Virus record (IMG/VR): IMGVR_UViG_3300033120_000148
Span: 11,764 to 75,763 of that record
DNA: 64,000 nt
Source of the DNA: a virus
Lineage: Duplodnaviria > Heunggongvirae > Uroviricota > Caudoviricetes > Crassvirales
Direction: 5' to 3' (one strand)
Part shown: one piece after another, positions 38,126-59,240 of the stretch
Position numbering within the stretch: the stretch's first letter is position 1
Layout: each line of letters begins with the position of its first letter
Notes under the pieces: generated by a model
Databases searched by the model: none
What the model saw: the letters and a program-made list of their open reading frames with translations, nothing else
What the model was told of the DNA's origin: nothing
Program-made: the position numbers and the translations under genes

Positions 38126-38298
38126 TATATTGATCTTATAGTTAGTGTATCAGAACACATATAGTGTATTTGACTCATTTTAAATCCCTTACTTTCAAGA
38201 AATTCTTCAACATCATCATTCTGAAGATCTATCTGACTTTCATCAACATGAAGTAATACTATTTCACCCACATTATAATCTAATATACTTATAGTCAT
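38125..38298 (-). CDS. Small acidic ORF (57 aa) translationally coupled between nrdD and nrdG
   Basis: ATGA overlap with the nrdD stop and TAATG overlap with the nrdG start. Absent from the track (<60 aa). Confidence 0.35.
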   Translation of the reverse strand: MTISILDYNVGEIVLLHVDESQIDLQNDDVEEFLESKGFKMSQIHYMCSDTLTIRSI

Positions 38299-40442
38299 AT
38301 TTCTTCCTTTCCATCGCTAAATATTCTTTTCTTTACTTCAATATTTCTAGCTTTACTATAGGAGCTATAAGGTCTAAGAAATCCAATTATCCTTACCCAG
38401 TAATCTATATGTTCACTACCACATATAGGACATACTTTGATAGGAGAATTAACTACATGACCACAATCTGAGCATTCACTAATAGGTATATTAAAAGTAA
38501 AATAATTACACCCTTCCTTTACAGCAAAATCTAGTATCTTTGTGTACTGTGCTTCACTTAGATGTTCATCTAAATGAATATGACAAGCTTGACCTCCTCC
38601 ACAGTATGTATTCACATCTCTATTATGTAGTTTTAATTTATCTAATATAGATATATTTTCATCCCACTGTTTAAAGAAGTAACTACTATACAGATTTTGA
38701 TCTTCAGGTACTTTATAACCATCTTTTTTATCCTGCTCATATAACTTTACAGCTAAATTCTCTCCTGGAATTGCTTCCAAGTTAAATACAAATGGTCTCT
38801 TTTTATCATGAATAGAGTGCTTCTTATTCTCTTCTTGTATAGTAGAGAATATAAGTTTAAGAAAATCCTTATACTCTTTATTATTATCTACTTTTAACCC
38901 TAAGGCTTCTGCTGCTTCACAGTAGCCAATTACTCCTATAGTACAGAATAGCTTCTTCATAAAGATATAACCAGCATTAGAACTGCTATACATCTTTTTA
39001 TCTTCCATTTCATATAGCATAGTTTTATATGCTATTTGATATTTATATACTCTTTCAAGTATACTTTTAAGATAATCTTTAAGAAGTATATTATTATCTT
39101 TACATCTAATCCAATTTTGAACTATTCTATTTAAATTAAGAGTAATTACATTAGCTGAACCAGTCATAATACCTGTTAATCCTATAGTAGAATTAAATGT
39201 ATTATCAACTATTTCATTTTGAACCCTACAACATGAAGAAATACTATTAGGATTATTACTTAGATATAGAAAGAAGCTACCTCCTTTAGCCCATTCTTCT
39301 ACTACCCATTTCTTTGTTTCTAAGTCAAGACAATTATTATTATCATGAAGCATACAAACTGAAGTTACTGGGAAAGTTAGAGGTTTAATTAATCTAAGTT
39401 CTCTATGTAATTCCATAAAGATTCTCTGAAGTTTATCTATTGCTACCCATTCTGGTTTAGAACCATCTGGATAATAGAACTCTCCAAATAATGATTCATA
39501 GTAATACTTATCAAAGAAATTAAGATTAGAGAAAGGACTATTATAGCTTCTATTGCCTGCAGGTTGATTAATACCATATATAAATTGCTTCATTCCTTTC
39601 CTAATAGCATCTTTAATAGTCTTCTTTTTAAGACAATGCTCAGATGAAATAGAGCAGTCTAATTTATCATACCATTTATCACCATATTCTGCAATTACAT
39701 AATAATTTAAAGCTATAATATAGTCTCCCATAGCTACAGCCCCTCTTACCTGTGATGATAATAAGAACATTAAATTAGTAACTTGTCCACTAAATGACTG
39801 AATATCATTAGGTGGTCCAGGAGTTACACCATCAATATCTTTAGTACCATTAAGCATCACAGGATACAAGGTAACAGCTTTACAATAAGGCTTTAATACA
39901 GGTGTTTGGCTCTCATCATGAGGATATATAATGTAATCATCAATGTCTTTCTCATAATCTTTAGATACCTCAGGGAATAATTCATTCAGTTCATCTTTCA
40001 TTCTCTGCCTTTGAATTACTCTATTAGTACTTTTAAATACCTCTCCCTCAAGATTTGCTACATTCTTCATAGTCACATTTGCATTAGCATCTGTTTCTGA
40101 AGAAGTTGCAGCATTATCTGAAGAATTAGTATAGTTATCCATATAATTAAGTCTTTCCTTAATAAATCTAGCATCATCATGATTTTTTCTATATATAATA
40201 TAGGCTTTTGCTACATTATAGAAGCCTTGATTCATTAATTCTCTTTCTATAGTATTTTGTATATTTTCAACAGTTTCTGTAGTTTCTATTTCTTTGTTCC
40301 ATAACACATTTAACTTTTTATAGTCAAAAGTATCATTACTTTCATTACAAGCTTTAAAGGCTTTATTTATAGCTACATAAATCTTTGCCAACTTAAAGTC
40401 CTCTAGTTCACCATTTCTTTTAATTACCTTCATTAAATCCAA
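38295..40442 (-). CDS. nrdD: Anaerobic (class III) ribonucleoside-triphosphate reductase
   Basis: N-terminal ATP-cone (VIKRNGELEDFKLAKI), 715 aa, C-terminal Zn ribbon CSDCGH..CPICG, and glycyl-radical region RIIGFLRP. Confidence 0.8.
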   Translation of the reverse strand: MDLMKVIKRNGELEDFKLAKIYVAINKAFKACNESNDTFDYKKLNVLWNKEIETTETVENIQNTIERELMNQGFYNVAKAYIIYRKNHDDARFIKERLNYMDNYTNSSDNAATSSETDANANVTMKNVANLEGEVFKSTNRVIQRQRMKDELNELFPEVSKDYEKDIDDYIIYPHDESQTPVLKPYCKAVTLYPVMLNGTKDIDGVTPGPPNDIQSFSGQVTNLMFLLSSQVRGAVAMGDYIIALNYYVIAEYGDKWYDKLDCSISSEHCLKKKTIKDAIRKGMKQFIYGINQPAGNRSYNSPFSNLNFFDKYYYESLFGEFYYPDGSKPEWVAIDKLQRIFMELHRELRLIKPLTFPVTSVCMLHDNNNCLDLETKKWVVEEWAKGGSFFLYLSNNPNSISSCCRVQNEIVDNTFNSTIGLTGIMTGSANVITLNLNRIVQNWIRCKDNNILLKDYLKSILERVYKYQIAYKTMLYEMEDKKMYSSSNAGYIFMKKLFCTIGVIGYCEAAEALGLKVDNNKEYKDFLKLIFSTIQEENKKHSIHDKKRPFVFNLEAIPGENLAVKLYEQDKKDGYKVPEDQNLYSSYFFKQWDENISILDKLKLHNRDVNTYCGGGQACHIHLDEHLSEAQYTKILDFAVKEGCNYFTFNIPISECSDCGHVVNSPIKVCPICGSEHIDYWVRIIGFLRPYSSYSKARNIEVKKRIFSDGKEEI

Positions 40443-42219: not shown

Positions 42220-43057
42220 ACATTACCTTTAGAATAGGACTCATTATAGCACAGGCAAATACGGCATCTGACAGAGATCTAAATGCAGGGAAATTATAAT
42301 AACTCTTTATCTTACTCTTATCAAGTTTAACAATTCTAGAAGTCACACTGTCTATAGTGTAGATTTCTTCACTATTTCTAATATGTCCCTCATAATCTTC
42401 ATCTAAACTAGTAGCTATTACTTTTAGCATAAAAGTATAGAATAAACAAGGGTCTATTTCCATATAAGAAATAAGAGAGTCATACATCTCTCTTGCTGGA
42501 GCTTCATCAACATATAGCATGTAATCAAATACTCTAAAGATTAGATGATTACTATCTTTATTAGAGTAGTCATTGATAAGTGCTTTAAGAATCTTCTTAC
42601 TATCTCTTGATAAGTAAGAACCACCTAGATTAAGACTTTTAAGAACAGTAATAGAGGAAGAGGCTTCTTCCTTCCAATTAGCCATAAAGTACCTCATACT
42701 CATTTTAACAGGTGCAGTAACTTCCTCATTTAGTTCTGTATTAAGAACTCCTTTATCTTGAGAGTCTGCTTCATAATCCTTATTACTATAGTATTTACCA
42801 TCTTTAAATATTACCATACCTTTTATAAGCATGTAAGCTAGTACTTCTTTTGAAGTTTGATCCCATCCCTTTGTAAACTCTTTAAAATAAGATCTTACAT
42901 CGGCATCTAGCTTTCCATACTCATGCCAAATTTCATTTTGGGTACTTTTCTCTGCCTCAGAAGTACTTTTCTTTAGTACATCTTTTTCAAGTACTTTCTC
43001 TGACACTTTTTTGTTTTTTACTTTTTCATTCATTTTAAATACTATTAAACCATTCAA
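42197..43057 (-). CDS. Hypothetical protein, 286 aa
   Basis: ORF only. Confidence 0.45.
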   Translation of the reverse strand: MNGLIVFKMNEKVKNKKVSEKVLEKDVLKKSTSEAEKSTQNEIWHEYGKLDADVRSYFKEFTKGWDQTSKEVLAYMLIKGMVIFKDGKYYSNKDYEADSQDKGVLNTELNEEVTAPVKMSMRYFMANWKEEASSSITVLKSLNLGGSYLSRDSKKILKALINDYSNKDSNHLIFRVFDYMLYVDEAPAREMYDSLISYMEIDPCLFYTFMLKVIATSLDEDYEGHIRNSEEIYTIDSVTSRIVKLDKSKIKSYYNFPAFRSLSDAVFACAIMSPILKVMYGKRKRK

Positions 43058-43712
43058 TGTTATAATTGAATTTGTTGTTAATTAAATTGTTTATATCTAT
43101 AAAAAGATTATATGGTAACTTCTCTTTATTTCTAGCATAGTATGCAGGGTGCTTAACCTTAATAATAGTATTTGATTTTTTATTTATATAACCTTCAAAA
43201 GTTGAAGCTTGGTCTCCAAATAGTACATAAATAAGTCCAGGGCACTTTTCTGACAGGTGTTTTAATAGACAAATGATAAATGGTCTCCATATCATAGTAT
43301 GTGAACCTACCTTATTTATTTCTACTGTTAGAGCAGAATTTAGCATTAAAATCCCTTGTTTAGCCCAACTCTCTAAAGTGTTATCAAAATTAATACAATT
43401 ATGAGGTAATTCATAATTAATAACAGCTTCTTTAATTACTTGTAATGAAGGTGATAACTTACCCTCTGGTGTACTAGATTTATTACCAAATAATATACCT
43501 GTAGCTACTCCATACTGAGTATAAGGCTCTTGCCCTATCATTACAACTTTAAGATTATTATAATCACAAATATTAAAAGCTTTAAATATATCTGACATAT
43601 TAGGACATATTACAGTGTTTTTACTTATACTATTAATACTATTTATAACTTTTAATAACTCCTGTTTATCTATGACTTTAATCCAGTCACCAAAGTAATC
43701 TTTTATATTCAT
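43035..43712 (-). CDS. ung: Uracil-DNA glycosylase (family 1-like)
   Basis: [20 protein letters not shown] matches [29 protein letters not shown] matches [16 protein letters not shown] matches HPSPLSA. Confidence 0.6.
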   Translation of the reverse strand: [225 protein letters not shown]

Positions 43713-43726
43713 AATTTATAAGATAT

Positions 43727-44488
43727 TTAGACAGCACTAAAATCTAGTACCTTCTCTAAACTATTTTTAAGAACCACTTCACAGTCTTCTGCAATAGATT
43801 TTAGCCTACTAGCTACTATACCACTTAAATTATCTGATGGCTTTAAAGTTATATCATCTGCTTTAATACCTATATCTTTAAAGACTATCTCTAAATTAGT
43901 ATGAAACTGAGATGACATATAAGGTATAAACTTATTTATTATAGCTTTATGTAATGGCAATGTAGACCCAAGCATACTCTTATTTACCTCTATAACTGAA
44001 TCTGATACAAGTATCTGATCTAATAGTCTATTATAAAGTGTTTTATAAGATATATTAATTAATATAGTACTATCTCTATAGTTAATTATTAACCCATGTG
44101 CTATTATATACTGTTCTCCATCCACACATTCTACAAGTTTTGGAAAACATTTATTACTCATAGTTGCCATTTCCATAATTATTTCATCAGGGTATAAAAT
44201 TTTAGGAGAGTTTTCCACTTTTCTATATAAAGGAAAATATGCAATTTTACCTTCTTTTAACCCTTTAGCTATAGTATGTAATACCTCAATTTTAGAAGTA
44301 TTATATCTAGACATACATATTATTGGAATATCTAAATCATGTTGGGAAAATCCTACAATCTCTAAAAATCCAAATATACTATTCTGTGCTTGTAAATCCC
44401 TAACTGAATCAGTAAAATTACCTCTATAGCCAGGTACATCTAGAATAGCATTTAAACAGGTTCTGTATCTTACACTAGTTCTAACCAT
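43727..44488 (-). CDS. Hypothetical protein, 253 aa (downstream partner of the E1-like gene)
   Basis: ORF only. Start/stop abuts the E1-like gene. Confidence 0.45.
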   Translation of the reverse strand: MVRTSVRYRTCLNAILDVPGYRGNFTDSVRDLQAQNSIFGFLEIVGFSQHDLDIPIICMSRYNTSKIEVLHTIAKGLKEGKIAYFPLYRKVENSPKILYPDEIIMEMATMSNKCFPKLVECVDGEQYIIAHGLIINYRDSTILINISYKTLYNRLLDQILVSDSVIEVNKSMLGSTLPLHKAIINKFIPYMSSQFHTNLEIVFKDIGIKADDITLKPSDNLSGIVASRLKSIAEDCEVVLKNSLEKVLDFSAV

Positions 44489-45585
44489 TATGATTCTGTT
44501 TTAAATAGCATAATTGTTGCATCATAGGATGTCTTAAATGGTAATGTTCTAAAATTATCACCAGACATAAGTGCTGCAAAATTAGCTAATAAGTTAACCA
44601 TATATGAAGCAATCATACAAGCACAAAAAGCTGTTTGCTTATAAGAACAAACAGTAGCATCAGCCTCATCATCACTAAATAAGTATTTATCTTTATACTC
44701 ATTAATAGCATAATCATTATCACCAGTAATAGCGAATATCTGAAACTCCTCTGCAGCTAATCTACCATCTATAAATAGGCACTTCTTTTTTGCTTCATCA
44801 TCTAGATCTTTTAAATGCTGACACCAAGATTTAAAGAATACCTTTCTAGCTCCCATATTATCAAAGCCACAAATCATTATATCCCCTGGTGTAGTATTAG
44901 GCTTAAATTTCTCTCTGCATTCAATATATCTACTATATCCTGAGTATGCTTCAATCTTAGAACATATAGCCGCAGACTTATAGTTTCCTACATCTTTTGA
45001 ACTATATAATTGACCTGATAGATTAACAAACTCTACTTTGTCAGGATCATATAGAATAAGGTAAGCAGGCTTAAATTTAGAAAGTAAATAAGCTACATAG
45101 CTTCCTATTCCACCTAAACCAGCTAGAATAATATTCTTGTTCTCAAAATACTTAAACCAAGATGCACCACTAAATCTTATAGTTGTTGAATCCACAGATT
45201 CTACATTTAAAGTTTTAATCTCAAGAGTAGGTTCTGTTGTACTAGGTTCTTCAGTAGATTCCTGCATGTTCATAAGTTCTTCAACTAACCTATCATCTAT
45301 ATTAATTGGATCTACAAGTATTTCTGCAACTTCATCTCTGCTCTCATTATTATCTGCTAGAACAGATTCTAAATCATCTAAATTTATAGCCTGAGTAACA
45401 GTTGGAAGAATTACATTAGAATTATCACTATTTGATTCAGGTGCATTTAATGCAGTTCCTACATTATTTATGTAAGAATTTACAAAGTTTTCTCTAGCAG
45501 ATATAGCTTGTTGATGCAGAGTATCAGCCATTGAATTTAGTTCCTCTTCAACTGAGAATACATTAGTATTGTTATCTGTATCCAT
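44488..45585 (-). CDS. E1-like (ThiF/MoeB/HesA superfamily) adenylyltransferase with acidic low-complexity N-terminal extension
   Basis: Rossmann loop ILAGLGGIGSY, E1 motif YDPDKVEFVNLSGQ (DxDxVE.SNL.RQ) and CGFDNMGARKVF (GxDN...R). Confidence 0.75.
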   Translation of the reverse strand: MDTDNNTNVFSVEEELNSMADTLHQQAISARENFVNSYINNVGTALNAPESNSDNSNVILPTVTQAINLDDLESVLADNNESRDEVAEILVDPINIDDRLVEELMNMQESTEEPSTTEPTLEIKTLNVESVDSTTIRFSGASWFKYFENKNIILAGLGGIGSYVAYLLSKFKPAYLILYDPDKVEFVNLSGQLYSSKDVGNYKSAAICSKIEAYSGYSRYIECREKFKPNTTPGDIMICGFDNMGARKVFFKSWCQHLKDLDDEAKKKCLFIDGRLAAEEFQIFAITGDNDYAINEYKDKYLFSDDEADATVCSYKQTAFCACMIASYMVNLLANFAALMSGDNFRTLPFKTSYDATIMLFKTES

Positions 45586-45587
45586 AA

Positions 45588-46829
45588 TTAATTTGTTTGT
45601 CTATCATCATATGCAAAATCACATATAATAGCCATTATTTCTTTAAAGTATTCATTATCATCTTCTCCTAATTCATCTTCAATAAGTAGAAATTCACTAT
45701 AAATACCTTGTATTAAATCTTTATCCATGGCTTCATTTAGAACAAAGTCCATGAAGTTATTTATCCAATTCCTAAATGAATTAAAGGTTTCAAATCTCTT
45801 AGAGTTAATAACTGGCATATCTTCTTTAATCCACTTTATAAGGTCTGTATCATCAACTTCTACAGATACTTCTCCTTTTAAGATTTGGAATATATAATTA
45901 TTAATCTCTTTCTTTTCTTCTTCAGTATATTCCTTTTCTATATTAGTATCTATAACATGATAACCTTCAGGTATCTTAGAATCTAGATTTACATCATCAT
46001 ATCCTTCCCAGTTATTATAATCATAATCACCAGATACAGCATCATCTAACCAAGTTTTATCTAATTGACCTTCATTCTTTGAAGTTTCCTTATCTTCCTT
46101 ACTTGTAAATAATGAAGTTTCTTTAGTCTTAAATGGTAGTTCAGAGTCTTTATAGAAACTCTTATTGAAAGTTTTAACAGTAGTAGTTTTACTCTTTAGA
46201 GCTGTAATTCTCTTCACTAGATCCTTATCATACCACTCTACTTCTTCTTTCTCTACTATTAGAGGGAATTTCTCTACTACTATACCACCATCAACATCAT
46301 AGGGTTCACTTGTAGTTACTATATCATTACTGTCATCCATAGATTTCTTAGTAACATAATTAACTACTTTACCTATAATTGTAGACTTTCTAGTTACAGC
46401 AGCAGTGTAAATACCAGCATTATTAACAATAAGACTTACAAAGAAGTTTCTATCCTTACCTTCTTCTACAAGAGTGCTATCATCTGTGGAACTAAAAAAT
46501 GTAGCCATAGAATTATGGGAATGAATTAAACCTTGATCACAATCCATTAAATCTTCTGTAACCATGTAATTAGCTACACTTTCATCTATTTTGAATTCTG
46601 TTGTAGTAGTTAGACCATAGTCCATAGGTAGAATATCTACACAAGTGATAACAAGATTATTATCATCAAAACTACCTTCTGTCTTAAAGAATAATACTCC
46701 AGACCATTCTACTGTGTCTATAAAGCTACACAGAATTCTTATTTTACTTTCAACTTTCTTGGGAATTATTATTTTATAATTATAAGACCCAGTTGCTGCT
46801 ACTAATGAAGCATTTTTTATATTTTGCAT
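45588..46829 (-). CDS. JAB/MPN+ (JAMM) metalloprotease-domain protein
   Basis: HSHNSMATFFSSTDD fits the JAMM HxHx7Sx2D motif. Sits immediately upstream of the E1-like gene. Confidence 0.6.
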   Translation of the reverse strand: MQNIKNASLVAATGSYNYKIIIPKKVESKIRILCSFIDTVEWSGVLFFKTEGSFDDNNLVITCVDILPMDYGLTTTTEFKIDESVANYMVTEDLMDCDQGLIHSHNSMATFFSSTDDSTLVEEGKDRNFFVSLIVNNAGIYTAAVTRKSTIIGKVVNYVTKKSMDDSNDIVTTSEPYDVDGGIVVEKFPLIVEKEEVEWYDKDLVKRITALKSKTTTVKTFNKSFYKDSELPFKTKETSLFTSKEDKETSKNEGQLDKTWLDDAVSGDYDYNNWEGYDDVNLDSKIPEGYHVIDTNIEKEYTEEEKKEINNYIFQILKGEVSVEVDDTDLIKWIKEDMPVINSKRFETFNSFRNWINNFMDFVLNEAMDKDLIQGIYSEFLLIEDELGEDDNEYFKEIMAIICDFAYDDRQTN

Positions 46830-48249
46830 AATTTAAATTTAATATTAAAATCATCTTTGTTACTACATAACTTACTAACATAGGATTTAAAATAAATGTA
46901 TTTATATTTGTTTTATCAAATGTATTTAAGTCACAAATATTTAATTTTACTATTTGTCCCTTAAATTTAAATAAATCTATACCATTTAGTTCTTTTAAAA
47001 TTCTTATATCTGTAGCACTTATAAGGTCAGAATTGATAACTTCTTTTACAATTTTACCATCAACTACACCAACTTTTATAATATCATCAAATGTTGTACT
47101 ACTCTGGTCAAAGAATTGTTCATAAGCTTCTACTGTCTCCTCTTTTCTTGCCTTTAAATAGTCAAGAAACCAATTACTAATTAATATAGTTAAGTCTTTC
47201 ATAGAATCACTAGGAACAAATGATGAATTACTACATCCCCATTTTAAATCTCCAAGATGGTAGTTAATCATATACTTTATAAATTTCTCAAATACCTCTC
47301 TAAAGTCATCTCTTGTAATTTGATAGTCATTAACTAAAGCAGGGAATATAACATCTCTGTAATCTTTAGGTAACCAATTAATAATACTTGACATACTTTT
47401 ATAAGGACCACCTGATAAAGATTCTACAGCAACATATCTATCTATCTCTATACAATATAGTTTCCATATATATAGATCATAACTAGTTAATAATGTAGAC
47501 TCTGTTGATATAATAGGACCATGTCCTAAACACACACTATTAAATTCAGAAAGTCCTCTTTTATATTCAGGATTATTTTCAATACTACGACATACTGGTC
47601 TAGCATGAGAGTGCTTATAATTATTCTTTAATTCAGCTACAGTATAAGTACCTCTATTTAATGTAAAATGACTTTCTAGTGTACCATCTCCTGCTATTGG
47701 TATACAAATATATACATCTCTTAATAGCATAGATTGGTCTTCTTCATTAGATATTTCTACCTCTGGGAAATGAATTAATATATCTCCTGCATAATTATCT
47801 GTTTCATCTATTTTTCTATTTAAAGTACTACTCACTCTATCAAATATACTAGTATAGCCTTCTATATTTATAGATTTAATAGCTTCAAAGATGCTCTTTA
47901 TAATATCTGTACATCTACGATATTCAACTGCATCATATAGCAGATAAAATAAAGCACTTAAATTATCTAATTCTTCATCATCCCAATCAAGATCATAATC
48001 TCTTGCAATATAATAGCATTTATCTCTTATAGCATCATCTAAACCATAAATTCCTAATATTGATACTATACTATCTTCAATAGATGTTGTAAAATCAACT
48101 CTGGGTTCACCATAATAATCTTCAAACACTTCAACTATAGAAGTTACTTTATCTACATCATAGTTAAGTTTTAATTCTTCAATATTAATAGAAGTATAGC
48201 TTAGAAATGTATTTACTATCCGAGAATTAAGTTCATCTTCATATATCAT
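46780..48249 (-). CDS. Hypothetical protein, 489 aa
   Basis: ORF only. Confidence 0.45.
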   Translation of the reverse strand: MIYEDELNSRIVNTFLSYTSINIEELKLNYDVDKVTSIVEVFEDYYGEPRVDFTTSIEDSIVSILGIYGLDDAIRDKCYYIARDYDLDWDDEELDNLSALFYLLYDAVEYRRCTDIIKSIFEAIKSINIEGYTSIFDRVSSTLNRKIDETDNYAGDILIHFPEVEISNEEDQSMLLRDVYICIPIAGDGTLESHFTLNRGTYTVAELKNNYKHSHARPVCRSIENNPEYKRGLSEFNSVCLGHGPIISTESTLLTSYDLYIWKLYCIEIDRYVAVESLSGGPYKSMSSIINWLPKDYRDVIFPALVNDYQITRDDFREVFEKFIKYMINYHLGDLKWGCSNSSFVPSDSMKDLTILISNWFLDYLKARKEETVEAYEQFFDQSSTTFDDIIKVGVVDGKIVKEVINSDLISATDIRILKELNGIDLFKFKGQIVKLNICDLNTFDKTNINTFILNPMLVSYVVTKMILILNLNYAKYKKCFISSSNWVL

Positions 48250-48282
48250 ATTTTTATTATTTCATTTATTAGTAATAAATAA

Positions 48283-48307
48283 AAAGGGAGAGTAAAATAC
48301 TCTCCCT
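48283..48307 (-). terminator. Rho-independent terminator after the 232-aa gene: perfect 8-bp stem AGGGAGAG/CTCTCCCT, then a T-rich tract on the minus strand
   Basis: Inverted repeat with a U-tract (reverse complement of ATAAATAAAAA). Confidence 0.5.
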
Positions 48308-48317
48308 ATTATATCTA

Positions 48318-49016
48318 CTAATCTCTCATTGCTCTAAGTTCATCTTCTGAAAAAGGAGACTCACTGCCTGAATCTGAACTCATATCTAGGTCTTCTCCAT
48401 TAGCAATTGCATTTAGCTCCTCAATTACATCCTCAGGATACTCACCATCAGCAGCTGTATTCAAGCCATCAGAAAGAAGCTGAGCCATTTTTTTAATAGT
48501 ACTCTCAAGCTTATTAACTCTTTCTTCTAGAGCAGAATTAGATTTCTCTGTATTCTCATTAGCAACTTTGTTGTGAATAGCATTACCAATTACATCCTCA
48601 CTAGATACAGCAGTTTTTTTCTTCTTGTCAAGAAGAGCAATAAGATCTACAGTCTTACAAGTAGTGAAGTTCTTACCATAAACCTTCTTGCATTCTTCTG
48701 TAAGATGGTTCTCCTTAATAGCAGTAATTACCTCTGTTCTACTCATTACACCACTCTTAATCTTCTTATTAGGTACAGTCAAGAATATAGCCAAATCATT
48801 AGTGATTGAACCCTTGAAAGGAAGTTCCTTAGGCAATACAGAATCATCTCTAGTAAGAACAGTCTTACTTACACCTTCAGTGAATTCCATACCTTCATAG
48901 TCAAAGTTCTTATTGTCTAGTTCTCTCTTCAACTCTCCAAGTGTTTCTACACCTGTGTTCAATACTAACTTCTTTGATGACTTTGTTGTTACAACTACAA
49001 TTTTTCTTGTTTCCAT
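48318..49016 (-). CDS. Hypothetical protein with acidic C-terminal tail (possible ssDNA-binding protein)
   Basis: C-terminus DLDMSSDSGSESPFSEDELRAMRD. Followed by a strong terminator, suggesting high expression. Function is speculative. Confidence 0.4.
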   Translation of the reverse strand: METRKIVVVTTKSSKKLVLNTGVETLGELKRELDNKNFDYEGMEFTEGVSKTVLTRDDSVLPKELPFKGSITNDLAIFLTVPNKKIKSGVMSRTEVITAIKENHLTEECKKVYGKNFTTCKTVDLIALLDKKKKTAVSSEDVIGNAIHNKVANENTEKSNSALEERVNKLESTIKKMAQLLSDGLNTAADGEYPEDVIEELNAIANGEDLDMSSDSGSESPFSEDELRAMRD

Positions 49017-49063: not shown

Positions 49064-50083
49064 TTATTCTGAAATCTTTTCCTTAATCAAATCTAATATA
49101 ACCCTATTAAACTTATCATGATTACTATAAAAGAAATCACTTATATCCTTACCACCTTCAAATTGAGGTAATATGATATTAATAAATCCAGTACTTTCAG
49201 CTAATTTTTCACTATCTTCTAGTCCTGGTTTATCATTGTCTAGACATATAAATACTTTCTCAAATCTTGATTTTAATTCATTTATAGCTGTCTGACTCAT
49301 TTTATATCCTTCTCCTTGAATAGCAATTGCTGGTATTCCTGTATTACACCATAAACATAGTGCATCTTTAAGAGAAGAACATATACAGACATATTTACCT
49401 AATTTTGGTATTTTAGTCCATAAGCTAACTACTGAGCTATCATGTTTATTGGACCATTTATAGCCCTTTGTATTAAAGGGTTGGTATATTTTTAATGTAA
49501 CCTTACCTTCTTTATGCTCAACATAGGCATAAGCATATTTATCCGCACCAAATACATACTGTTTACCATTCTTTATTACAATCTTATGTGATATAGGATA
49601 AACCTCAGCAAACTTTAACCATTCTATAGTTATACCATAAGATTTCCAGTATTCTATATCATGTTTTCGCCAATCTCTTACTTTACATTGTAATATAGTA
49701 TCATTACTTAGATTTGATTTTGGTGTATTACTTTTGTTATTGCCAGTACTGTTAACAATTGAAGTGTTAATGCTCACACTGTGTCTTTTAATGTGTTCTA
49801 AATCTTTTAGTACTCTACTAATAACTCCAGGTACACTTATTTGCCATAGTTGACTTAATAGGTTAAAAGGTCTACCTCCCTCCCTAGTGGAAAAATCTAT
49901 ATAATTTACTTCTTTTCCATCAGGAGTATAAATACCAAATGAAGGATGTTTATCACTTCTTAATGGACTACATATTAAACAAGGTATTTCAGTTAAATGC
50001 AAATAATATGCTACTATCTGTGTTTCATCTACTTGTGTTAATATTTCTTCTATACTTGTGGAAGTATTACCTTTACCTATCAT
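49064..50083 (-). CDS. DNA primase (TOPRIM domain)
   Basis: TOPRIM Glu (IAIQGEGY) and DxD (FICLDNDKPG). N-terminal Cys/His cluster. Confidence 0.6.
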   Translation of the reverse strand: MIGKGNTSTSIEEILTQVDETQIVAYYLHLTEIPCLICSPLRSDKHPSFGIYTPDGKEVNYIDFSTREGGRPFNLLSQLWQISVPGVISRVLKDLEHIKRHSVSINTSIVNSTGNNKSNTPKSNLSNDTILQCKVRDWRKHDIEYWKSYGITIEWLKFAEVYPISHKIVIKNGKQYVFGADKYAYAYVEHKEGKVTLKIYQPFNTKGYKWSNKHDSSVVSLWTKIPKLGKYVCICSSLKDALCLWCNTGIPAIAIQGEGYKMSQTAINELKSRFEKVFICLDNDKPGLEDSEKLAESTGFINIILPQFEGGKDISDFFYSNHDKFNRVILDLIKEKISE

Positions 50084-53802: not shown

Positions 53803-54405
53803 TTATTTTATTTCAACTTCCCATAGATTACTAACAGTTTCTTCTCCTTTATTCTCAATATAATTAATCAACTCAGAGCTTTCTTCTACTTTACCTGCAG
53901 CACCTTTTTCATCTTTAAATAGAAAATATTTAAGAACTTTCATAAATCTATAATCACCATTAAAGCTCTCTACATATCTCTTAGCTGCATCAAGTATCTC
54001 CTCATCAGGGTATCTGGTTTCATATTTCTTAAAGAGCACCTTTAATCTCTTTTCAATAAGAGCTACACCATCTGACCAATATAAATTAGTCCCATCCTTC
54101 TTACCTTTAGGAAATACCTCCTTTAGCTTTTTAGCTAATTCTTCTAGTTCCTTATCAGGCTTAGAACTTATAGTTGAATCTACCATAACTGAATTAAGAG
54201 CAGATTTACCTCTCCCTGTTACTAACCATTTATAATGAGTGTTATTAAATAATTCTCTGTTAGCAGTTATATAACCCTTATCAATTAAAGATTTCTCTGC
54301 TTCTTCTAAATCTAAATTTTCTTTAATGCTTATTAGCAAGATACTTTCTGCAATACTAAGATCTTTTTTTACACAAACTTCTTCATTCAAAAATATATTG
54401 CTCAT
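53803..54405 (-). CDS. Hypothetical protein, 200 aa
   Basis: ORF only. Confidence 0.45.
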   Translation of the reverse strand: MSNIFLNEEVCVKKDLSIAESILLISIKENLDLEEAEKSLIDKGYITANRELFNNTHYKWLVTGRGKSALNSVMVDSTISSKPDKELEELAKKLKEVFPKGKKDGTNLYWSDGVALIEKRLKVLFKKYETRYPDEEILDAAKRYVESFNGDYRFMKVLKYFLFKDEKGAAGKVEESSELINYIENKGEETVSNLWEVEIK

Positions 54406-55606
54406 TTTTTAAATCATTAATATTTTTAATCTCCTTAATTAATGCTGGATTATAATCTTTCAGCATTTTATCTTTTAGTTTCTCTTCCCTAGTGAATCTG
54501 TAATAAGGAATAATAATTACAGGACTTTCATGTCTAAGTAATCTACCTAATCTCTGAATAATAACTATTTCAGAGCTATTCAAATTAGCAAATACACCTA
54601 CCTTACAATTAACTAGATTAGCACCTTCATTAAGCATAGTACATGATGATAAATGGTTTATTTTATTACAATTAAAATCATTCATTATCTTTTCATTTCT
54701 AACACTCTTATTTTTAAAACTAATAGCATTATCACATAGCTCTTTTGCTTGTTCTATAGAACTACAAAAAGTCATGGTTCTAGATGAGTCTATAATAGAT
54801 AGTATATCTTTAATTACAGGTGTTTTTAATTTACTTAACCATTTTAATCTTTGATTACATAGTTGTAGCCATTTTCTGTGATGCCTTATTCTATTAGGAT
54901 TATCAGGATTCATACTTGATCCTTTATAAAAACTAATATCATTATCCATATTCTGATAGAACTCATTTTCAGTGCAACGAATTTCTATTTTATATAAATG
55001 CTGTTTAATAGCATCCCATCTATGTTTCCAATCTACAACAATTGTAGGATTTCTTCCATTACTATTCTTTGTTATAATCTGACTAGGGTCTAAATCATTA
55101 AGAGTTAAAGGTATTAAATATACTCTTGGATCAGGTAATACTTTATCATCTATTGCATCTTTAATACTAATCTTATATACATATAGATGCTTAAATACTC
55201 TATTTAAATCATATAATTTATACCTTGTAATAGTAGCAGACAATAAAATTGAATGCTTGAAAGACATCTCATTAATAATAGACATACATTTATCAGTAAT
55301 ATGCTGAGCTTCATCAAATATAATAGTATCAATTTCTTTATCCTTATATTTGTGTAAACTCACATATGTTGTAAATATTATATTATCTAGATACTTACTA
55401 TATCCCCATTTGTTAATTTCATCTTTCCAAGTAGTTATCAATACCAGTTTAGGAATTACTATTAAGATTATTCCTGTAGGGTTATATACATTTAATAAAT
55501 CTAAGGAATTCTTAGTCTTACCATATCCCGTAGCTAGTTCTAGTAAGATATTATTATAACTTTCCCCTAGATTTAATATTTCTTTATTAACCTCTTCTCT
55601 ATTCAT
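54383..55606 (-). CDS. Superfamily 2 DNA/RNA helicase
   Basis: Motif I LATGYGKT, motif II FDEAQH, motif III LLSATITR. Confidence 0.7.
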   Translation of the reverse strand: MNREEVNKEILNLGESYNNILLELATGYGKTKNSLDLLNVYNPTGIILIVIPKLVLITTWKDEINKWGYSKYLDNIIFTTYVSLHKYKDKEIDTIIFDEAQHITDKCMSIINEMSFKHSILLSATITRYKLYDLNRVFKHLYVYKISIKDAIDDKVLPDPRVYLIPLTLNDLDPSQIITKNSNGRNPTIVVDWKHRWDAIKQHLYKIEIRCTENEFYQNMDNDISFYKGSSMNPDNPNRIRHHRKWLQLCNQRLKWLSKLKTPVIKDILSIIDSSRTMTFCSSIEQAKELCDNAISFKNKSVRNEKIMNDFNCNKINHLSSCTMLNEGANLVNCKVGVFANLNSSEIVIIQRLGRLLRHESPVIIIPYYRFTREEKLKDKMLKDYNPALIKEIKNINDLKNEQYIFE

Positions 55607-56178: not shown

Positions 56179-56541
56179 TTAATCTTCATTTACAGAGAAT
56201 GTAAATGACTCTCCACCCTCATTTTGGCAAATGTTGAATAGATGCTTAATAAGTCTTTGGTTCTTATTAAGTAGTTTCCATGATGACACAGAAGGCATCC
56301 AAGAAGGAATATTATCTGGGTCTATCATTGAGTTATATGCTTCCTCAGAAATATTTATTTTCTTTAAAGCAGGTTTTGACTTTCTTGTCTTAAACTCGAT
56401 TCTTTCTCTATGCTTGTTTTCATCTGAAACAATCATAGTGTGAACATTATAAGACTCTGTTGGGTTTTTTGAGCACTCCTTCTCACTCATCATTACTCCT
56501 CCTGGAAGAGTAATAATAAGATTTACTTTAATATTATCCAT
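56179..56541 (-). CDS. Hypothetical protein, 120 aa
   Basis: ORF only. Not GroES-like. Confidence 0.4.
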   Translation of the reverse strand: MDNIKVNLIITLPGGVMMSEKECSKNPTESYNVHTMIVSDENKHRERIEFKTRKSKPALKKINISEEAYNSMIDPDNIPSWMPSVSSWKLLNKNQRLIKHLFNICQNEGGESFTFSVNED

Positions 56542-58121
56542 TAAAAAATTGATTTATTATCATGATTATCTACCATGATACACTTTGTATTCATTATAGT
56601 TAGAGCTACTGAAGCTGCATTTTCCAATGATACTCTAGTAACCTTAGCAGGGTCAATAATACCTGCTTCAATCATATCTACTATTTTATCATTTTTAGCA
56701 TCATATCCTATCCTATTACTAGAATCATAAACATCATCTACATCTGGTACATCCTTAGTAAATATATTAAATGGCTTTAATATAGCTTTTTCAACTATTT
56801 CAATACCTCTCTCTACACTAGGGTCTTCCTCTGTACTAGCTAAGTGGTGTAGTATCATAGATGCCTTAGCATATGTTGCACCACCACCTACTACAATACC
56901 TTCTTCCATTGCTGCATATATAGCACAGATAGCATCATCTACCCTATCTTTTCTCTCATTAACCTCAATGTCTGATTTACCACCTACTTTAATGACTCCA
57001 ATACTACTCTTAAATGTAGCTAATCTCCTCTCTAAAACTCTCTTTACAGAGTCATCACTTGAATTAGTAATTAGATTTTCAATCTCTTTGCATCTATTAT
57101 CTATTTCAGTAGAAGATACTCCATCATTTAGCTCCATAAGAGTATAATTATTGGAGATAGTAGCAGAATTTACTTTTCCTAGCTTACTTTCATCTATATT
57201 TGCTAGTGTATTTCCTATTGAGTCATCAATTAAAGTAGCACCAGTAATAATACTAATATCCTTTAGTGTTTCTTCTCTATTATATGACATTCCAGGAGAT
57301 TTAATAACACACACATTTATCTTACCTCTTATATAATTATATACTAGAGCCTCAAGAGCTGTCTTTGAAATATCATTTACAAAGATAATTAGACACTGAC
57401 CACCTTCTTTGCTTTTACTAATAGCTGGTATTAAAGTATTAGCATCATCTACTCTGCCATTATAAACCAGCACACTAGGATGTATTAATTGAATTTTATC
57501 ATCATCATACTGAGAAGCAAAATTTGCATCTGCATAACCTCTATCTACCTTTGCTCCCTTATAGAAATCTAGATAAGATATATTATTATAAGCTATATCA
57601 GCAGTAACATAACAGTTAATATCCTTCTCAAAGGCTTGACTGATTAAGTCACTGATTGAACTGTCATTATTAGCTGAGATATATGCTACTTGCTTAATAG
57701 ATTCTAGATTATTAGCTACTTCAATATAGCTATCTTTAATATATTCTCCAACTGCATCCACAGCAATATTAATTCCCTCTTTAACTTTTCTAGCATCATA
57801 ACCCTCATCAATACTTTTAATACCTTCATTAATCATAGTTGCTGCTAGAATAGTAGTAGTTGTAGTACCATCTCCTGCTTCTTTAGCTGTCTTTATTGCA
57901 GCACCCTTAACTAAATCTGCACCCATCTTCTCAAATGGGTCTTGCAAATCTACTTCTTGTGCTACAGTAACTCCATCTTTAGTTATATAGGGATATTCAC
58001 TACCTCTATCAATAATTACTTCTTTACCATTAGGTCCTAATGTACTACCAACTGCTTCTGCTAGTATGTTAACACCCTCTTGTAATTTGTATATTGCATC
58101 AAATTTAACTGTCTTACTCAT
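56541..58121 (-). CDS. groL: GroEL-type chaperonin (Cpn60), phage-encoded
   Basis: TLGPNGKEVIID, ITKDGVTVAQEVDL, AGDGTTTTTILA, GGGATYAKAS and C-terminal GIIDPAKVTRVSLENAASVA all match GroEL along the full 526 aa. Confidence 0.9.
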   Translation of the reverse strand: MSKTVKFDAIYKLQEGVNILAEAVGSTLGPNGKEVIIDRGSEYPYITKDGVTVAQEVDLQDPFEKMGADLVKGAAIKTAKEAGDGTTTTTILAATMINEGIKSIDEGYDARKVKEGINIAVDAVGEYIKDSYIEVANNLESIKQVAYISANNDSSISDLISQAFEKDINCYVTADIAYNNISYLDFYKGAKVDRGYADANFASQYDDDKIQLIHPSVLVYNGRVDDANTLIPAISKSKEGGQCLIIFVNDISKTALEALVYNYIRGKINVCVIKSPGMSYNREETLKDISIITGATLIDDSIGNTLANIDESKLGKVNSATISNNYTLMELNDGVSSTEIDNRCKEIENLITNSSDDSVKRVLERRLATFKSSIGVIKVGGKSDIEVNERKDRVDDAICAIYAAMEEGIVVGGGATYAKASMILHHLASTEEDPSVERGIEIVEKAILKPFNIFTKDVPDVDDVYDSSNRIGYDAKNDKIVDMIEAGIIDPAKVTRVSLENAASVALTIMNTKCIMVDNHDNKSIF

Positions 58122-58409: not shown

Positions 58410-59240
58410 TTACTTTATATCATAAAATGGTGTTGCGCCATTTCCCATTAACATAGTAATCTTAACATTCCCTTTATTTCTTACCATATCAACTTTCTCT
58501 TTCTCAATCTCAACTGATCTTAGTCTTATATACTGCTCAGGGTTTAATCCCATCTTAGCTCTATAGGCATCATCTGCTTCTGCTCTCTTTTCTTCTGCTA
58601 GCTTTCTATATCCCTGCATCTGAGAAGCTGCTATTTGAGTCTGCTTAGCTTGTATCTGTGCTGCTGTCTTATTATATTCTTCCATTACTTCTGCATTAGG
58701 ACTTGCTTTATCTATAATAACTTTCATAATAGTAATAGGAATATGTTCTCTCTTAACTTTATCCTTTAGAACATTCTCTATTCTTTTTGAAGCATTATCA
58801 TAAATAGTTCTCTTACAAGTTAATTCCATCATAGGATACTTGCTAATCTCATTTCTTACTTCATTGCACATGTCCTTCTTAATATCATTTTCATACCACT
58901 TTACTCCAAAGTTCTTTATAAGAGTAGGTGATTCTCCCTTATTAATTCTAATAAGAACATGGGCAGTTAAATCTACAGGTGTATTATCAGAACTCATAAT
59001 ATCAGTAAATGATTCATCATATTGTACTGGTATAATTTTAACTCTGACTACATCTGTAGTCCATGCTGTCCAAGTAGTTCCTGATGTAATAGGAGTATCA
59101 TAAACTCCCCCATGCCCAAAGAACCATGGCTTAGCAATTAATACTGCTTCTTCATCTGCATCAACATCTGAAAAACTACAGCTAGATAGACCTATCATAC
59201 TGATTAGACCTATCAAAAACAATTTTAAAATTTGTTTCAT
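58410..59240 (-). CDS. Lipoprotein with SPFH/band-7 (prohibitin/stomatin-like) domain
   Basis: Lipobox LIGLISMIGLSSC. SPFH-like core RVKIIPVQYD..VDLTAHVLIRIN, then Ala/Gln-rich coiled coil TAAQIQAKQTQIAASQMQGYRKLAEEKRAEADDAYRAKMG. Confidence 0.55.
   Translation of the reverse strand: MKQILKLFLIGLISMIGLSSCSFSDVDADEEAVLIAKPWFFGHGGVYDTPITSGTTWTAWTTDVVRVKIIPVQYDESFTDIMSSDNTPVDLTAHVLIRINKGESPTLIKNFGVKWYENDIKKDMCNEVRNEISKYPMMELTCKRTIYDNASKRIENVLKDKVKREHIPITIMKVIIDKASPNAEVMEEYNKTAAQIQAKQTQIAASQMQGYRKLAEEKRAEADDAYRAKMGLNPEQYIRLRSVEIEKEKVDMVRNKGNVKITMLMGNGATPFYDIK

Follow-up and report, generated by a model that had tools for sequence, protein, structure and literature searches.

What does a tailed phage do with an E1-like (ThiF/MoeB) adenylation enzyme and a JAB/MPN+ metalloprotease encoded side by side among its replication genes? 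Such a pair occurs in a 64,000-nt stretch of crAss-like phage DNA (order Crassvirales; IMG/VR record IMGVR_UViG_3300033120_000148, positions 11,764 to 75,763), hereafter called the window, whose numbering is used for all genes and for the nucleotide ranges of individual residues. A preliminary description made from the sequence of the window proposed that the two genes form a phage ubiquitin-like conjugation/deconjugation module, and both open reading frames (ORFs) were found on the minus strand exactly where it had placed them (Table 1). Our analysis supports this proposal and strengthens it: a predicted ubiquitin-like protein (Ubl) and an E2-like protein accompany the pair, the family of the putative protease matches known JAMM proteases, and the E1-like enzyme stands apart from the activators of sulfur carriers. 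Both added components are invisible to sequence profiles and came to light only through structure prediction. The locus is probably a four-gene Ubl conjugation cassette, consisting of a Ubl precursor, an E2-like protein, the JAB protease and the E1, plus an associated gene for a 253-aa protein.

Predicted ubiquitin-like precursor

The pair had been described as lacking a recognizable Ub-like partner, which proved wrong, since a predicted β-grasp Ubl precursor of 232 aa is encoded two genes upstream. This protein is homologous to gp79 of phage ΦcrAss001 (crAss001), baj_17, DAC_48 and Fp_gp53, and has 236 metagenomic homologues at E ≤ 1e-3. An AlphaFold2 model built on an alignment of 121 sequences has the topology β-β-α-β...β, with mean values of the predicted local distance difference test (pLDDT) of 87-96 for 10-residue blocks over residues 1-80 and values below 50 in the tail (residues 85-89). 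The top 50 Foldseek matches of this model in the PDB are nearly all β-grasp proteins (ubiquitin, SUMO, NEDD8, ISG15, DIX, UBX), with a probability of ~1.0 and TMt of 0.46-0.73 against standalone Ubl chains, and a β-grasp fold is predicted for residues 1-89. The neighbours include the bacterial Ubl 8tyx_A, which we take to come from the Bil line of work. A profile search of the PDB with the family alignment did not recognize the Ubl family, and a Pfam scan of its 121 members and of the split C-terminal ORF described below gave no match to ubiquitin, ThiS, HeH, SAP or Rho_N. Pfam, NCBIfam, PADLOC and the PDB, searched with the 232-aa sequence on its own, likewise yielded nothing significant.

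The Ser88-Gly89 dipeptide at the end of this domain is invariant in 121 of 121 homologues and in all 73 IMG/VR loci, and the residues past the glycine vary. Divergent homologues end the domain with KKIESG, ARPKSG, KVDSG or NIDGG, the last providing a Gly-Gly. In most genomes Gly89 is internal to the precursor and would be exposed by cleavage. It is followed by a three-helix domain (residues 93-135, as seen in the model and in the conservation) with the motif GKNFTxCKTxDLIxLL, and then by a disordered linker, a long helix and an acidic tail with a conserved SPxSxxELxxMF; residues 136-232 contain 23 Asp and Glu against 8 Lys and Arg. By eye the three-helix domain looks HeH/SAP-like, a label that is a mere impression because Pfam gives no HeH/SAP support.

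Four of the 73 IMG/VR Ubl homologues (cr106_1, L044, L061 and L079) stop exactly two codons past the glycine, so that the Ubl is free-standing (~91 aa) and the rest of the precursor has an ORF of its own. In cr106_1, a 92-aa ORF ending in ...KKIKSGKF is followed by an HNH homing-endonuclease gene and then by a 130-aa ORF, with its own start, for the helical/acidic part. Related HNH genes occupy the same spot in all four genomes (L005:3020-3535 in cr106_1, L044:3314-3832, L061:3541-4044 and L079:3694-3882), and these insertions may go back to a single event or to repeated homing; L079 keeps only a decayed remnant of the endonuclease gene, yet the split persists. As these four genomes show, the Ubl and the C-terminal part need not be covalently linked, and a Ubl extended by two residues is viable. 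A split just past the glycine is also the pattern expected of a modifier that is matured by a peptidase.

E1-like adenylation enzyme

The 365-aa protein matches the Pfam family ThiF (PF00899) over residues 146-336 with E = 1.4e-13, and its score of 51 bits against a gathering threshold of 28.1 places this Rossmann-type domain in the E1-like superfamily. It shares 58% identity with the cr106_1 protein and 53% with that of ΦcrAss001. Its best matches in PADLOC were Cap2-type E1-E2 models (6e-11), together with a partial and weak match to BilD (5e-7). A profile of the family found MccB (7e-10), UBA5 (6e-9), PaaA and TcdA as its top PDB matches, which are restricted to the common Rossmann segment (profile positions ~79-150), and also UBA1, ThiF and Cap2.

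The full E1 adenylation signature that had been attributed to this protein is present as regards GLGGIGS, DPDKVEFVNLSGQ and GFDNMGAR, but not at the arginine of NLxRQ, which is an invariant glycine (NLSGQ). The family alignment shows conserved R137 and invariant G156, G158 and G159 (the GxGGxG loop), D180, K203, D242, R247 and Cys313. The latter, the sole invariant cysteine, lies 71 residues past the Mg-binding aspartate and directly before the next conserved hydrophobic segment (AFCACMIASYMVNLLANF), presumably a helix as in ThiF and UBA5. Its surroundings follow C[ST]xKQT in 80 of 80 IMG/VR loci, and the cysteine is retained in the most divergent homologues. Its position is presumably equivalent to those of the catalytic cysteines C184 of ThiF and C250 of UBA5. 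The N-terminal extension of ~130 residues is acidic, as described (28 Asp and Glu vs 4 Lys and Arg). This acidic low-complexity extension is missing in FpV4, and crAss001 and cr106_1 have unrelated, possibly folded sequences of ~150-170 residues in its place; because it is not conserved, we do not regard it as a functional feature.

The preliminary description had also considered that the enzyme might cluster with the MoeB/ThiF sulfur-carrier activators. Its best NCBIfam matches are indeed ThiF models (7.6e-14 and 3.8e-12), but it scores below every equivalog cut-off (PRK08644, 51.8 vs 159 bits; TIGR02354, 46.5 vs 152; TIGR02356, 28 vs 275; MoeB, 18 vs 266), and neither a CxxC pair (zinc site) nor a rhodanese domain was found in the family alignment. 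For bases 1-100,000 of the 102,679-base crAss001 genome, the annotation lists no genes of thiamine or molybdopterin metabolism or of sulfur transfer, and a scan of ~17 neighbouring ORFs in the window gave no ThiS/ThiG/ThiH, MoaD/MoaE, cysteine desulfurase, rhodanese or sulfurtransferase. The name "thiamine biosynthesis protein ThiF", carried by dozens of phage records, is misleading.

Predicted JAB/MPN+ metalloprotease

The JAMM motif reported for the 413-aa protein is borne out, as Glu41, His103, His105, Ser113 and Asp116 are all present and make up the catalytic signature E ... HxH-x7-S-x2-D. Taken alone, the window protein gives a weak match to Prok-JAB (E = 0.019, 15.3 bits, below the 25-bit cut-off); the Pfam search with six family members matched this model in six of six cases, with a best value of 1.1e-6. 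The top three PDB matches of the family profile are two entries of Pyrococcus furiosus JAMM1 (0.023 and 0.026) and CSN5 (0.025), followed by an Rpn11-like chain at 1.3, and these matches are aligned on the active site. From such sequence matches, the family appears to belong with Prok-JAB and the JAMM proteases.

His103, His105, Ser113 and Asp116 are invariant in six aligned orthologues. Of the six annotated sequences, only that of DAC15, whose annotated start lies further downstream and excludes this region, lacks Glu41 (in EWSG); HxHx7SxxD is conserved in 73 of 77 IMG/VR homologues. The C-terminal ~260 residues are variable. PADLOC gave no match of the protein to Cap3 or BilC at E ≤ 0.1, and NCBIfam and the PDB, searched with this sequence by itself, gave nothing significant.

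At one locus (L007:7217-9390), a LAGLIDADG homing-endonuclease gene, encoded on the other strand, interrupts the JAB gene shortly before the HSH motif of the active site and leaves ORFs of 89 aa (N-terminal) and 327 aa (C-terminal). In several Flavobacterium phages (Fpv2, FPSV-D18 and FPSV-D9; H73-H75), the match to the JAB protein falls into two parts that extend over ~1.4 kb. These interrupted genes may contain introns or be split genes.

Probable E2-like protein

The absence of an E2 partner, also noted in the preliminary description, needs to be corrected, since structure prediction points to the flanking 489-aa protein as a probable, highly diverged E2. Its AlphaFold2 model has an overall pLDDT of 80 and a predicted template modelling score of 0.73, with means of 80-98 for 10-residue blocks over residues 151-290. 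The core of the model consists of a helix, a three-stranded meander, a flap with His-Ser-His (H-S-H), a short strand leading to Cys240, and two helices, and its only consistent α/β structural neighbours are those of the UBC/RWD/UEV superfold. By sequence the protein has no match in Pfam, NCBIfam, PADLOC or the PDB. A word-index search returned 6 matches, and an exhaustive profile search found 2,657 cluster representatives of the family at 50% identity. In 150 diverse members, S214, H215, C240, G242, E276, S277, G280 and P282 are invariant and H213 is present in at least 90%; H[ST]H...CxG is conserved in 74 of 74 IMG/VR loci.

The canonical E2 motif is HPN-x7-8-C-L. The H-S-H of the window protein is separated from Cys240 by 25 residues, compared with ~8 in the HPN-type motif. 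A divergent syntenic homologue at locus L101 has the motif HPHLSGGMGINSFCLG (HPH-x10-C-L-G), which in sequence comes close to the canonical one and would lend independent support to the E2 assignment. It suggests that the wider, 25-residue spacing of the window protein arose by an insertion specific to its lineage. The assignment is probable rather than established, and it is the weakest link of the whole interpretation.

Conservation and linkage of the gene cassette

The E1-JAB pair had been reported from the window, but it is not peculiar to it. Both genes are conserved in crAss001-like phages (Steigviridae) and in Flavobacterium phages of the genus Fipvunavirus, and they are already in GenBank, where crAss001 gp76 is named "thiamine biosynthesis protein, ThiF" and gp77 "metalloprotease domain containing protein"; the flanking gp79, gp78 and gp75 are hypothetical proteins. 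The same gene block is found in bajarodcaudo virus 1, cr106_1, DAC15 and Flavobacterium phage FpV4 (gp53-gp49). The E1, the JAB protease and the 489-aa protein each occur in exactly 74 of 50,697 phage records, with an identical organism breakdown (29 Bacteroides, 29 Flavobacterium, 12 uncultured and 4 others).

The E1 alignment, scanned against IMG/VR, gave 309 loci, of which 80 were fetched and 68 had enough flanking DNA. The order Ubl, E2-like, JAB, E1 and 253-aa-like gene is the same in all 68. Among 185,579 species genomes, the E1 was found on 11 contigs, all from metagenome-assembled genomes (MAGs) and most of phage size, and every one of them that spans the flanks has the four-gene order, down to 39% E1 identity. 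Two divergent cassettes reside on very long contigs, a 640-kb contig of a "Bacilli" MAG (L100, JBMNLZ010000002.1) and a 374-kb contig of a Puia sp. MAG (L102, DASYBV010000020.1). These copies may represent integrated or plasmid-like relatives, or assembly chimeras.

Packing is tight in the window: JAB and E1 are separated by 2 nt, and in ATGA at 44488 the E1 stop overlaps the first codon of the 253-aa gene. Between the E2-like and JAB genes there is an overlap of 50 nt (46780-46829) in different frames. Relatives keep this overlap, which is 59-62 nt long in crAss001, bajarodcaudo virus and cr106_1 and reaches 125 nt in FpV4; it could serve translational coupling or, more speculatively, a frameshift fusion.

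The 253-aa gene follows the E1 in all 68 IMG/VR loci; in the two most divergent cassettes found (L101 and L102) it was not detected. It evolves fast: the protein has a collinear but weak similarity to gp75 and baj_13 (E ~0.002), with common motifs in a full-length alignment, and its match to FpV4 gp49 (E = 0.002 in a tiny database) does not establish homology. A word-index search found 8 close homologues. Searches of Pfam, NCBIfam, PADLOC, PHROG and the PDB, the last also with a profile of the family alignment, gave no match, and sequence and profile searches provided no evidence of either a β-grasp or an E2 fold. The protein could be a substrate, an adaptor or unrelated to the cascade.

Proposed mechanism and alternative explanations

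The analysis shows which genes are present, to which family or fold they belong, which residues are invariant and how strictly the gene order is kept; from this we infer the following chemical steps, including the cleavage site, the E2 role of the 489-aa protein and the targets. The 232-aa precursor would be made as a β-grasp domain fused to a helical/acidic C-terminal part and cleaved by the JAB protease after Ser88-Gly89, so that an 89-residue Ubl ending in a free glycine is released. The E1 would presumably act as a homodimer, as do ThiF, UBA5 and BubCD; it would adenylate Gly89 with ATP and then carry the Ubl as a thioester on Cys313. From there the Ubl would pass to Cys240 of the E2-like protein and on to target lysines, the choice of targets being made by the additional N- and C-terminal domains of the E2-like protein, and the JAB protease would also reverse the modification. 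The cassette is fixed between the primase and uracil-DNA glycosylase (UDG) genes, and because of this position replication/repair, early-takeover or defence-protein targets are hinted at, that is, replication and repair proteins of phage or host, or defence proteins of the host, modified during the replication phase.

Several observations weigh against this mechanism. No target, E3 or proteasome-like reader is evident, and the cascade is drawn from genes and models, each of its biochemical steps being deduced from them. The Foldseek E-values of the Ubl are no better than ~1e-3. In the E1 family an invariant glycine replaces the ATP-contacting arginine of the canonical NLxRQ, and Cys313 is assigned to the crossover loop from its spacing in the sequence and from comparison with ThiF and UBA5 sequences. 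For the 489-aa protein, the Foldseek search of the PDB with the model gave noise (E > 0.4), profile searches with the family found no PDB match, and hhalign of the family against UBE2D2, UBC9 and UBE2N was without a match; its invariant H-S-H, cysteine and glutamate could instead form a metal site.

Because the evidence for the E2 is the weakest link, the main alternative is an E2-independent triad like those of sampylation (SAMP/UbaA/JAMM1, TtuB/TtuC/TtuD), in which the E1 would pass the Ubl directly to targets and the 489-aa protein would be a substrate, a scaffold or a metalloenzyme merely travelling along. Ubl, E1 and JAB are the best-supported part of the cassette, the JAB profile finds its best PDB match in JAMM1 of P. 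furiosus, which processes SAMP, and the invariant H-x-H, Cys and Glu of a protein with moderate E2 evidence could bind metal. We grant this explanation a modest chance of being right, as the 489-aa gene is linked as strictly as the others (74 of 74 phage records and 68 of 68 loci), its structural neighbours are UBC/RWD/UEV proteins, and a divergent homologue has the HPH...C-L motif. An unlikely explanation is that the Ubl acts as a sulfur carrier, bearing a thiocarboxylate like ThiS, MoaD, TtuB or CysO for the thiolation of nucleic acids or cofactors, with the JAB protease serving for maturation only. The naming of the GenBank orthologues as ThiF and the top NCBIfam matches to ThiF models are in line with this role, as is the occurrence of Ubl, E1 and JAB triads with a C-terminal glycine in sulfur transfer in CysO/Mec+ and related operons (PMC1779556). 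It is disfavoured because the E1 fails the equivalog cut-offs and lacks the zinc-site and rhodanese features, and because no cofactor genes were found among the ~17 neighbouring ORFs scanned or are annotated in bases 1-100,000 of the crAss001 genome; moreover, a helical/acidic fusion and an E2-like partner with an invariant cysteine would be unexpected in such a system.

That the module interferes with host defence, the JAB protease stripping Ubl or CD-NTase (nucleotidyltransferase) conjugates of Bil and of type II CBASS (cyclic oligonucleotide-based antiphage signalling system) and/or the E1 and Ubl acting as decoys that block the host machinery, seems quite improbable. Conjugation is required by the Bil and CBASS systems of hosts (PMC11601596), the E1 has a domain-level resemblance to Cap2 and BilD, and counter-defence had already been raised in the preliminary description; on the other hand, the JAB protease has no Cap3 or BilC match in PADLOC, and the module is fixed in the replication operon across very different Bacteroidota hosts, which is not typical of accessory anti-defence genes. 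The cassette comprises a full set of Ubl, E2-like, JAB and E1 genes that are inherited together and have intact catalytic residues, and an autonomous cascade is therefore favoured over interference; counter-defence as its biological purpose could be compatible with the proposed mechanism. Least probable of all, and only barely credible in our view, is an adenylation reaction without a Ubl, as in MccB, PaaA or TcdA, acting on a peptide, nucleotide or nucleic acid next to a JAB protein that is an unrelated processing protease and a structural or DNA-associated β-grasp domain. MccB, UBA5, PaaA and TcdA are the top PDB profile matches and the operon is one of DNA metabolism; these matches are, however, limited to the Rossmann segment, and the Ser-Gly tail of the adjacent β-grasp protein, with the gene split at this very point, would be hard to explain without C-terminal activation.

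Comparison with known systems

In functional terms, the proposed conjugation cassette would work like Bil (BilA-D), with a precursor reminiscent of Bub or TAPI and a minimal E1 of the UBA5/ThiF kind. As in Bil, the Ubl, E2, JAB/JAMM peptidase and E1 are encoded by separate genes and there is no E3. BilD has the domain architecture IAD-AAD-CYS (PMC11601596), whereas the phage E1 is a single adenylation domain of ~235 aa. In addition, the phage Ubl is made as a precursor with a helical/acidic domain of ~140 aa, and the cassette is located in the replication operon of a lytic phage and not in a bacterial defence island. Apart from the partial BilD match, PADLOC gave no match to BilA, BilB or BilC at E ≤ 0.1, and the cassette was not assigned to Bil.

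In Type I Bub systems (6E.1/DUF6527; BubAB, BubCD and BubE), the JAB protease has been demonstrated to cut the Ubl-fusion precursor right after the conserved glycine, as shown for BubAB/BubCD (PMC11601596). They share with the phage cassette a Ubl that is fused at its C-terminus and a minimal ThiF/UBA5-like E1. They differ in having Ubl-E2 and JAB-E1 fusions, Ser/Tyr oxyesters and a DUF6527 serine protease, in contrast to the four separate phage genes with an invariant cysteine in both the E1 and the E2-like protein and with a helical/acidic fusion partner. No match to DUF6527 was found, and the logic of precursor processing is the only common feature, so that the cassette does not belong to Type I Bub.

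Type II CBASS also combines an E1-type adenylation domain (Cap2, the best PADLOC match, in the Rossmann part only) with a JAB deconjugase (Cap3). The phage cassette has a dedicated β-grasp Ubl, but no E2-E1 fusion, CD-NTase substrate or effector; given its separate genes, the lack of a nucleotidyltransferase in the operon and the missing PADLOC match of the JAB protease to Cap3, it was not placed in this type. The archaeal SAMP/UbaA/JAMM1 and Thermus TtuB/TtuC/TtuD systems resemble it in their small β-grasp protein with a C-terminal glycine, minimal E1 and maturing and deconjugating JAMM protease. They have no E2 and double as sulfur carriers, whereas the phage E1 is without zinc-site and rhodanese features and the E2-like gene is strictly linked.

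Two further systems offer parallels. The tail protein TAPI of phages lambda and T1 consists of a β-grasp domain, a conserved glycine and a C-terminal domain, with a predicted JAB cut at this point in the TAPI/TAPK pair (PMC1779556). The layout of Ubl, glycine and C-terminal domain and the association of a Ubl with a JAB protease in a phage are thus shared, but TAPI and TAPK (JAB-NlpC/P60) belong to a tail module without E1 or E2 and the JAB domain is fused to NlpC/P60, whereas the present cassette lies in the replication module. PRTRC is an E1 and JAB cassette of plasmids and conjugative elements, to which NCBIfam gave weak matches (PRTRC_ThiF, 8e-8; PRTRC_A, 0.088). Membership was rejected on score (31.9 vs 144.75 and 12.4 vs 101.8 bits), and there was no match to ParB or other PRTRC proteins.

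Genomic context

The replication-gene setting of the pair (UDG, primase, helicases) given in the preliminary description agrees with our results. According to the ORF list, Pfam and the comparison with crAss001, the surroundings are a crAss-like replication module with a Toprim primase, an SF2 (superfamily 2) helicase and a UDG homologue (Table 1), as well as a DUF1064/resolvase-like gene and a large, probable ribonucleotide reductase (RNR). A megablast search with positions 43000-49000 against the 50,697 phage records found no relatives at the nucleotide level. Protein searches placed the window among the Steigviridae/Asinivirinae crAss-like phages, and one window protein is 100% identical to a protein of a JGI metagenome contig (P0009). 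The G+C content of the window is 26-33%. From ~18 kb onward its genes are on the minus strand, and GC skew and AT skew change sign at this point, where the plus-strand gene block gives way to the minus-strand one.

Table 1. Positions of the cassette genes, their domains and key residues, and of neighbouring replication genes in the 64,000-nt window
Feature	Position (nt)	Strand	Remark
Ubl precursor gene, 232 aa	48318-49016	-	Orthologue of crAss001 gp79 and FpV4 gp53
Predicted β-grasp ubiquitin-like domain, residues 1-89	48750-49016	-	Flexible basic tail ...KKIKSG
Gly89 codon of Ubl	48750-48752	-	
C-terminal part of precursor, residues 90-232	48318-48749	-	
Probable E2-like (UBC-superfold) protein, 489 aa	46780-48249	-	Orthologue of crAss001 gp78
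E2-like core, residues ~135-290	47380-47847	-	
E2-like His213-Ser214-His215	47605-47613	-	
E2-like candidate catalytic Cys240	47530-47532	-	
JAB/MPN+ (JAMM) metalloprotease, 413 aa	45588-46829	-	Orthologue of crAss001 gp77
JAB catalytic domain, residues ~18-150	46380-46778	-	
JAB Glu41	46707-46709	-	
JAB H103-x-H105-x7-S113-x2-D116	46482-46523	-	
E1-like adenylation enzyme, 365 aa	44488-45585	-	Orthologue of crAss001 gp76
E1 adenylation domain, residues 131-365	44488-45195	-	
E1 GxGGxG loop	45109-45120	-	
E1 Cys313	44647-44649	-	Sole invariant Cys
E1 acidic N-terminal extension	45196-45585	-	Not conserved
Fast-evolving conserved gene, 253 aa	43727-44488	-	Positional orthologue of crAss001 gp75
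Toprim primase	49064-50083		Replication module
SF2 helicase	54383-55606		Replication module
UDG homologue	43035-43712		58% identity to crAss001 UDG gp74

Three other minus-strand genes of the window were noted. A GroEL-type chaperonin of 526 aa (56541-58121; Pfam Cpn60_TCP1, 1.5e-59) is encoded in the replication/early region; the crAss001 annotation lists a putative 10-kDa co-chaperonin (gp15), and GroEL is absent from the annotation tables examined. An SPFH/Band-7 protein (58410-59240; Pfam, 1.5e-12) is the counterpart of the SPFH-domain protein gp91 of crAss001. A 715-aa ORF with a TTG start (38295-40442) resembles an anaerobic (class III) RNR, as judged from the annotation of the syntenic gene, which is a class III RNR in bajarodcaudo virus 1 and a B12-dependent RNR in crAss001 and cr106_1. 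If this annotation-based identity is right, it would be a swap of RNR class between related phages.

Biological implications

No published description of the cassette in crAss-like phages was found in the literature searched, which did not cover subscription journals, so that this absence is not proof; the lambda/T1 TAPI/TAPK proteins were the only earlier phage association of a Ubl with a JAB protease found there. To our knowledge, the characterized bacterial Ubl conjugation systems (CBASS Cap2/Cap3, Bil and Bub), whose chemistry was shown only recently, are always host weapons against phages. We see about an even chance that lytic phages of Bacteroidota, ΦcrAss001 included, run a complete Ubl cascade of their own during replication and tag host or phage proteins with it. 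This can be tested in culture with ΦcrAss001 (gp79-gp75), DAC15/17 and the Flavobacterium psychrophilum phages, as trypsin, cutting after Lys87, should leave a Ser-Gly remnant of +144.05 Da on modified lysines.

The phage lineage in whose replication operon the cassette is strictly conserved ranks among the most abundant in the human gut. If the proposed cascade is real, very divergent Ubl and E2 families without a Pfam model would be added to the evolution of ubiquitin signalling. It would also be the first system of E1, E2, Ubl and deubiquitinase shown to be used by a virus of bacteria, a mirror image of Bil, Bub and CBASS in which the phage side of the conflict uses the same chemistry as the host.

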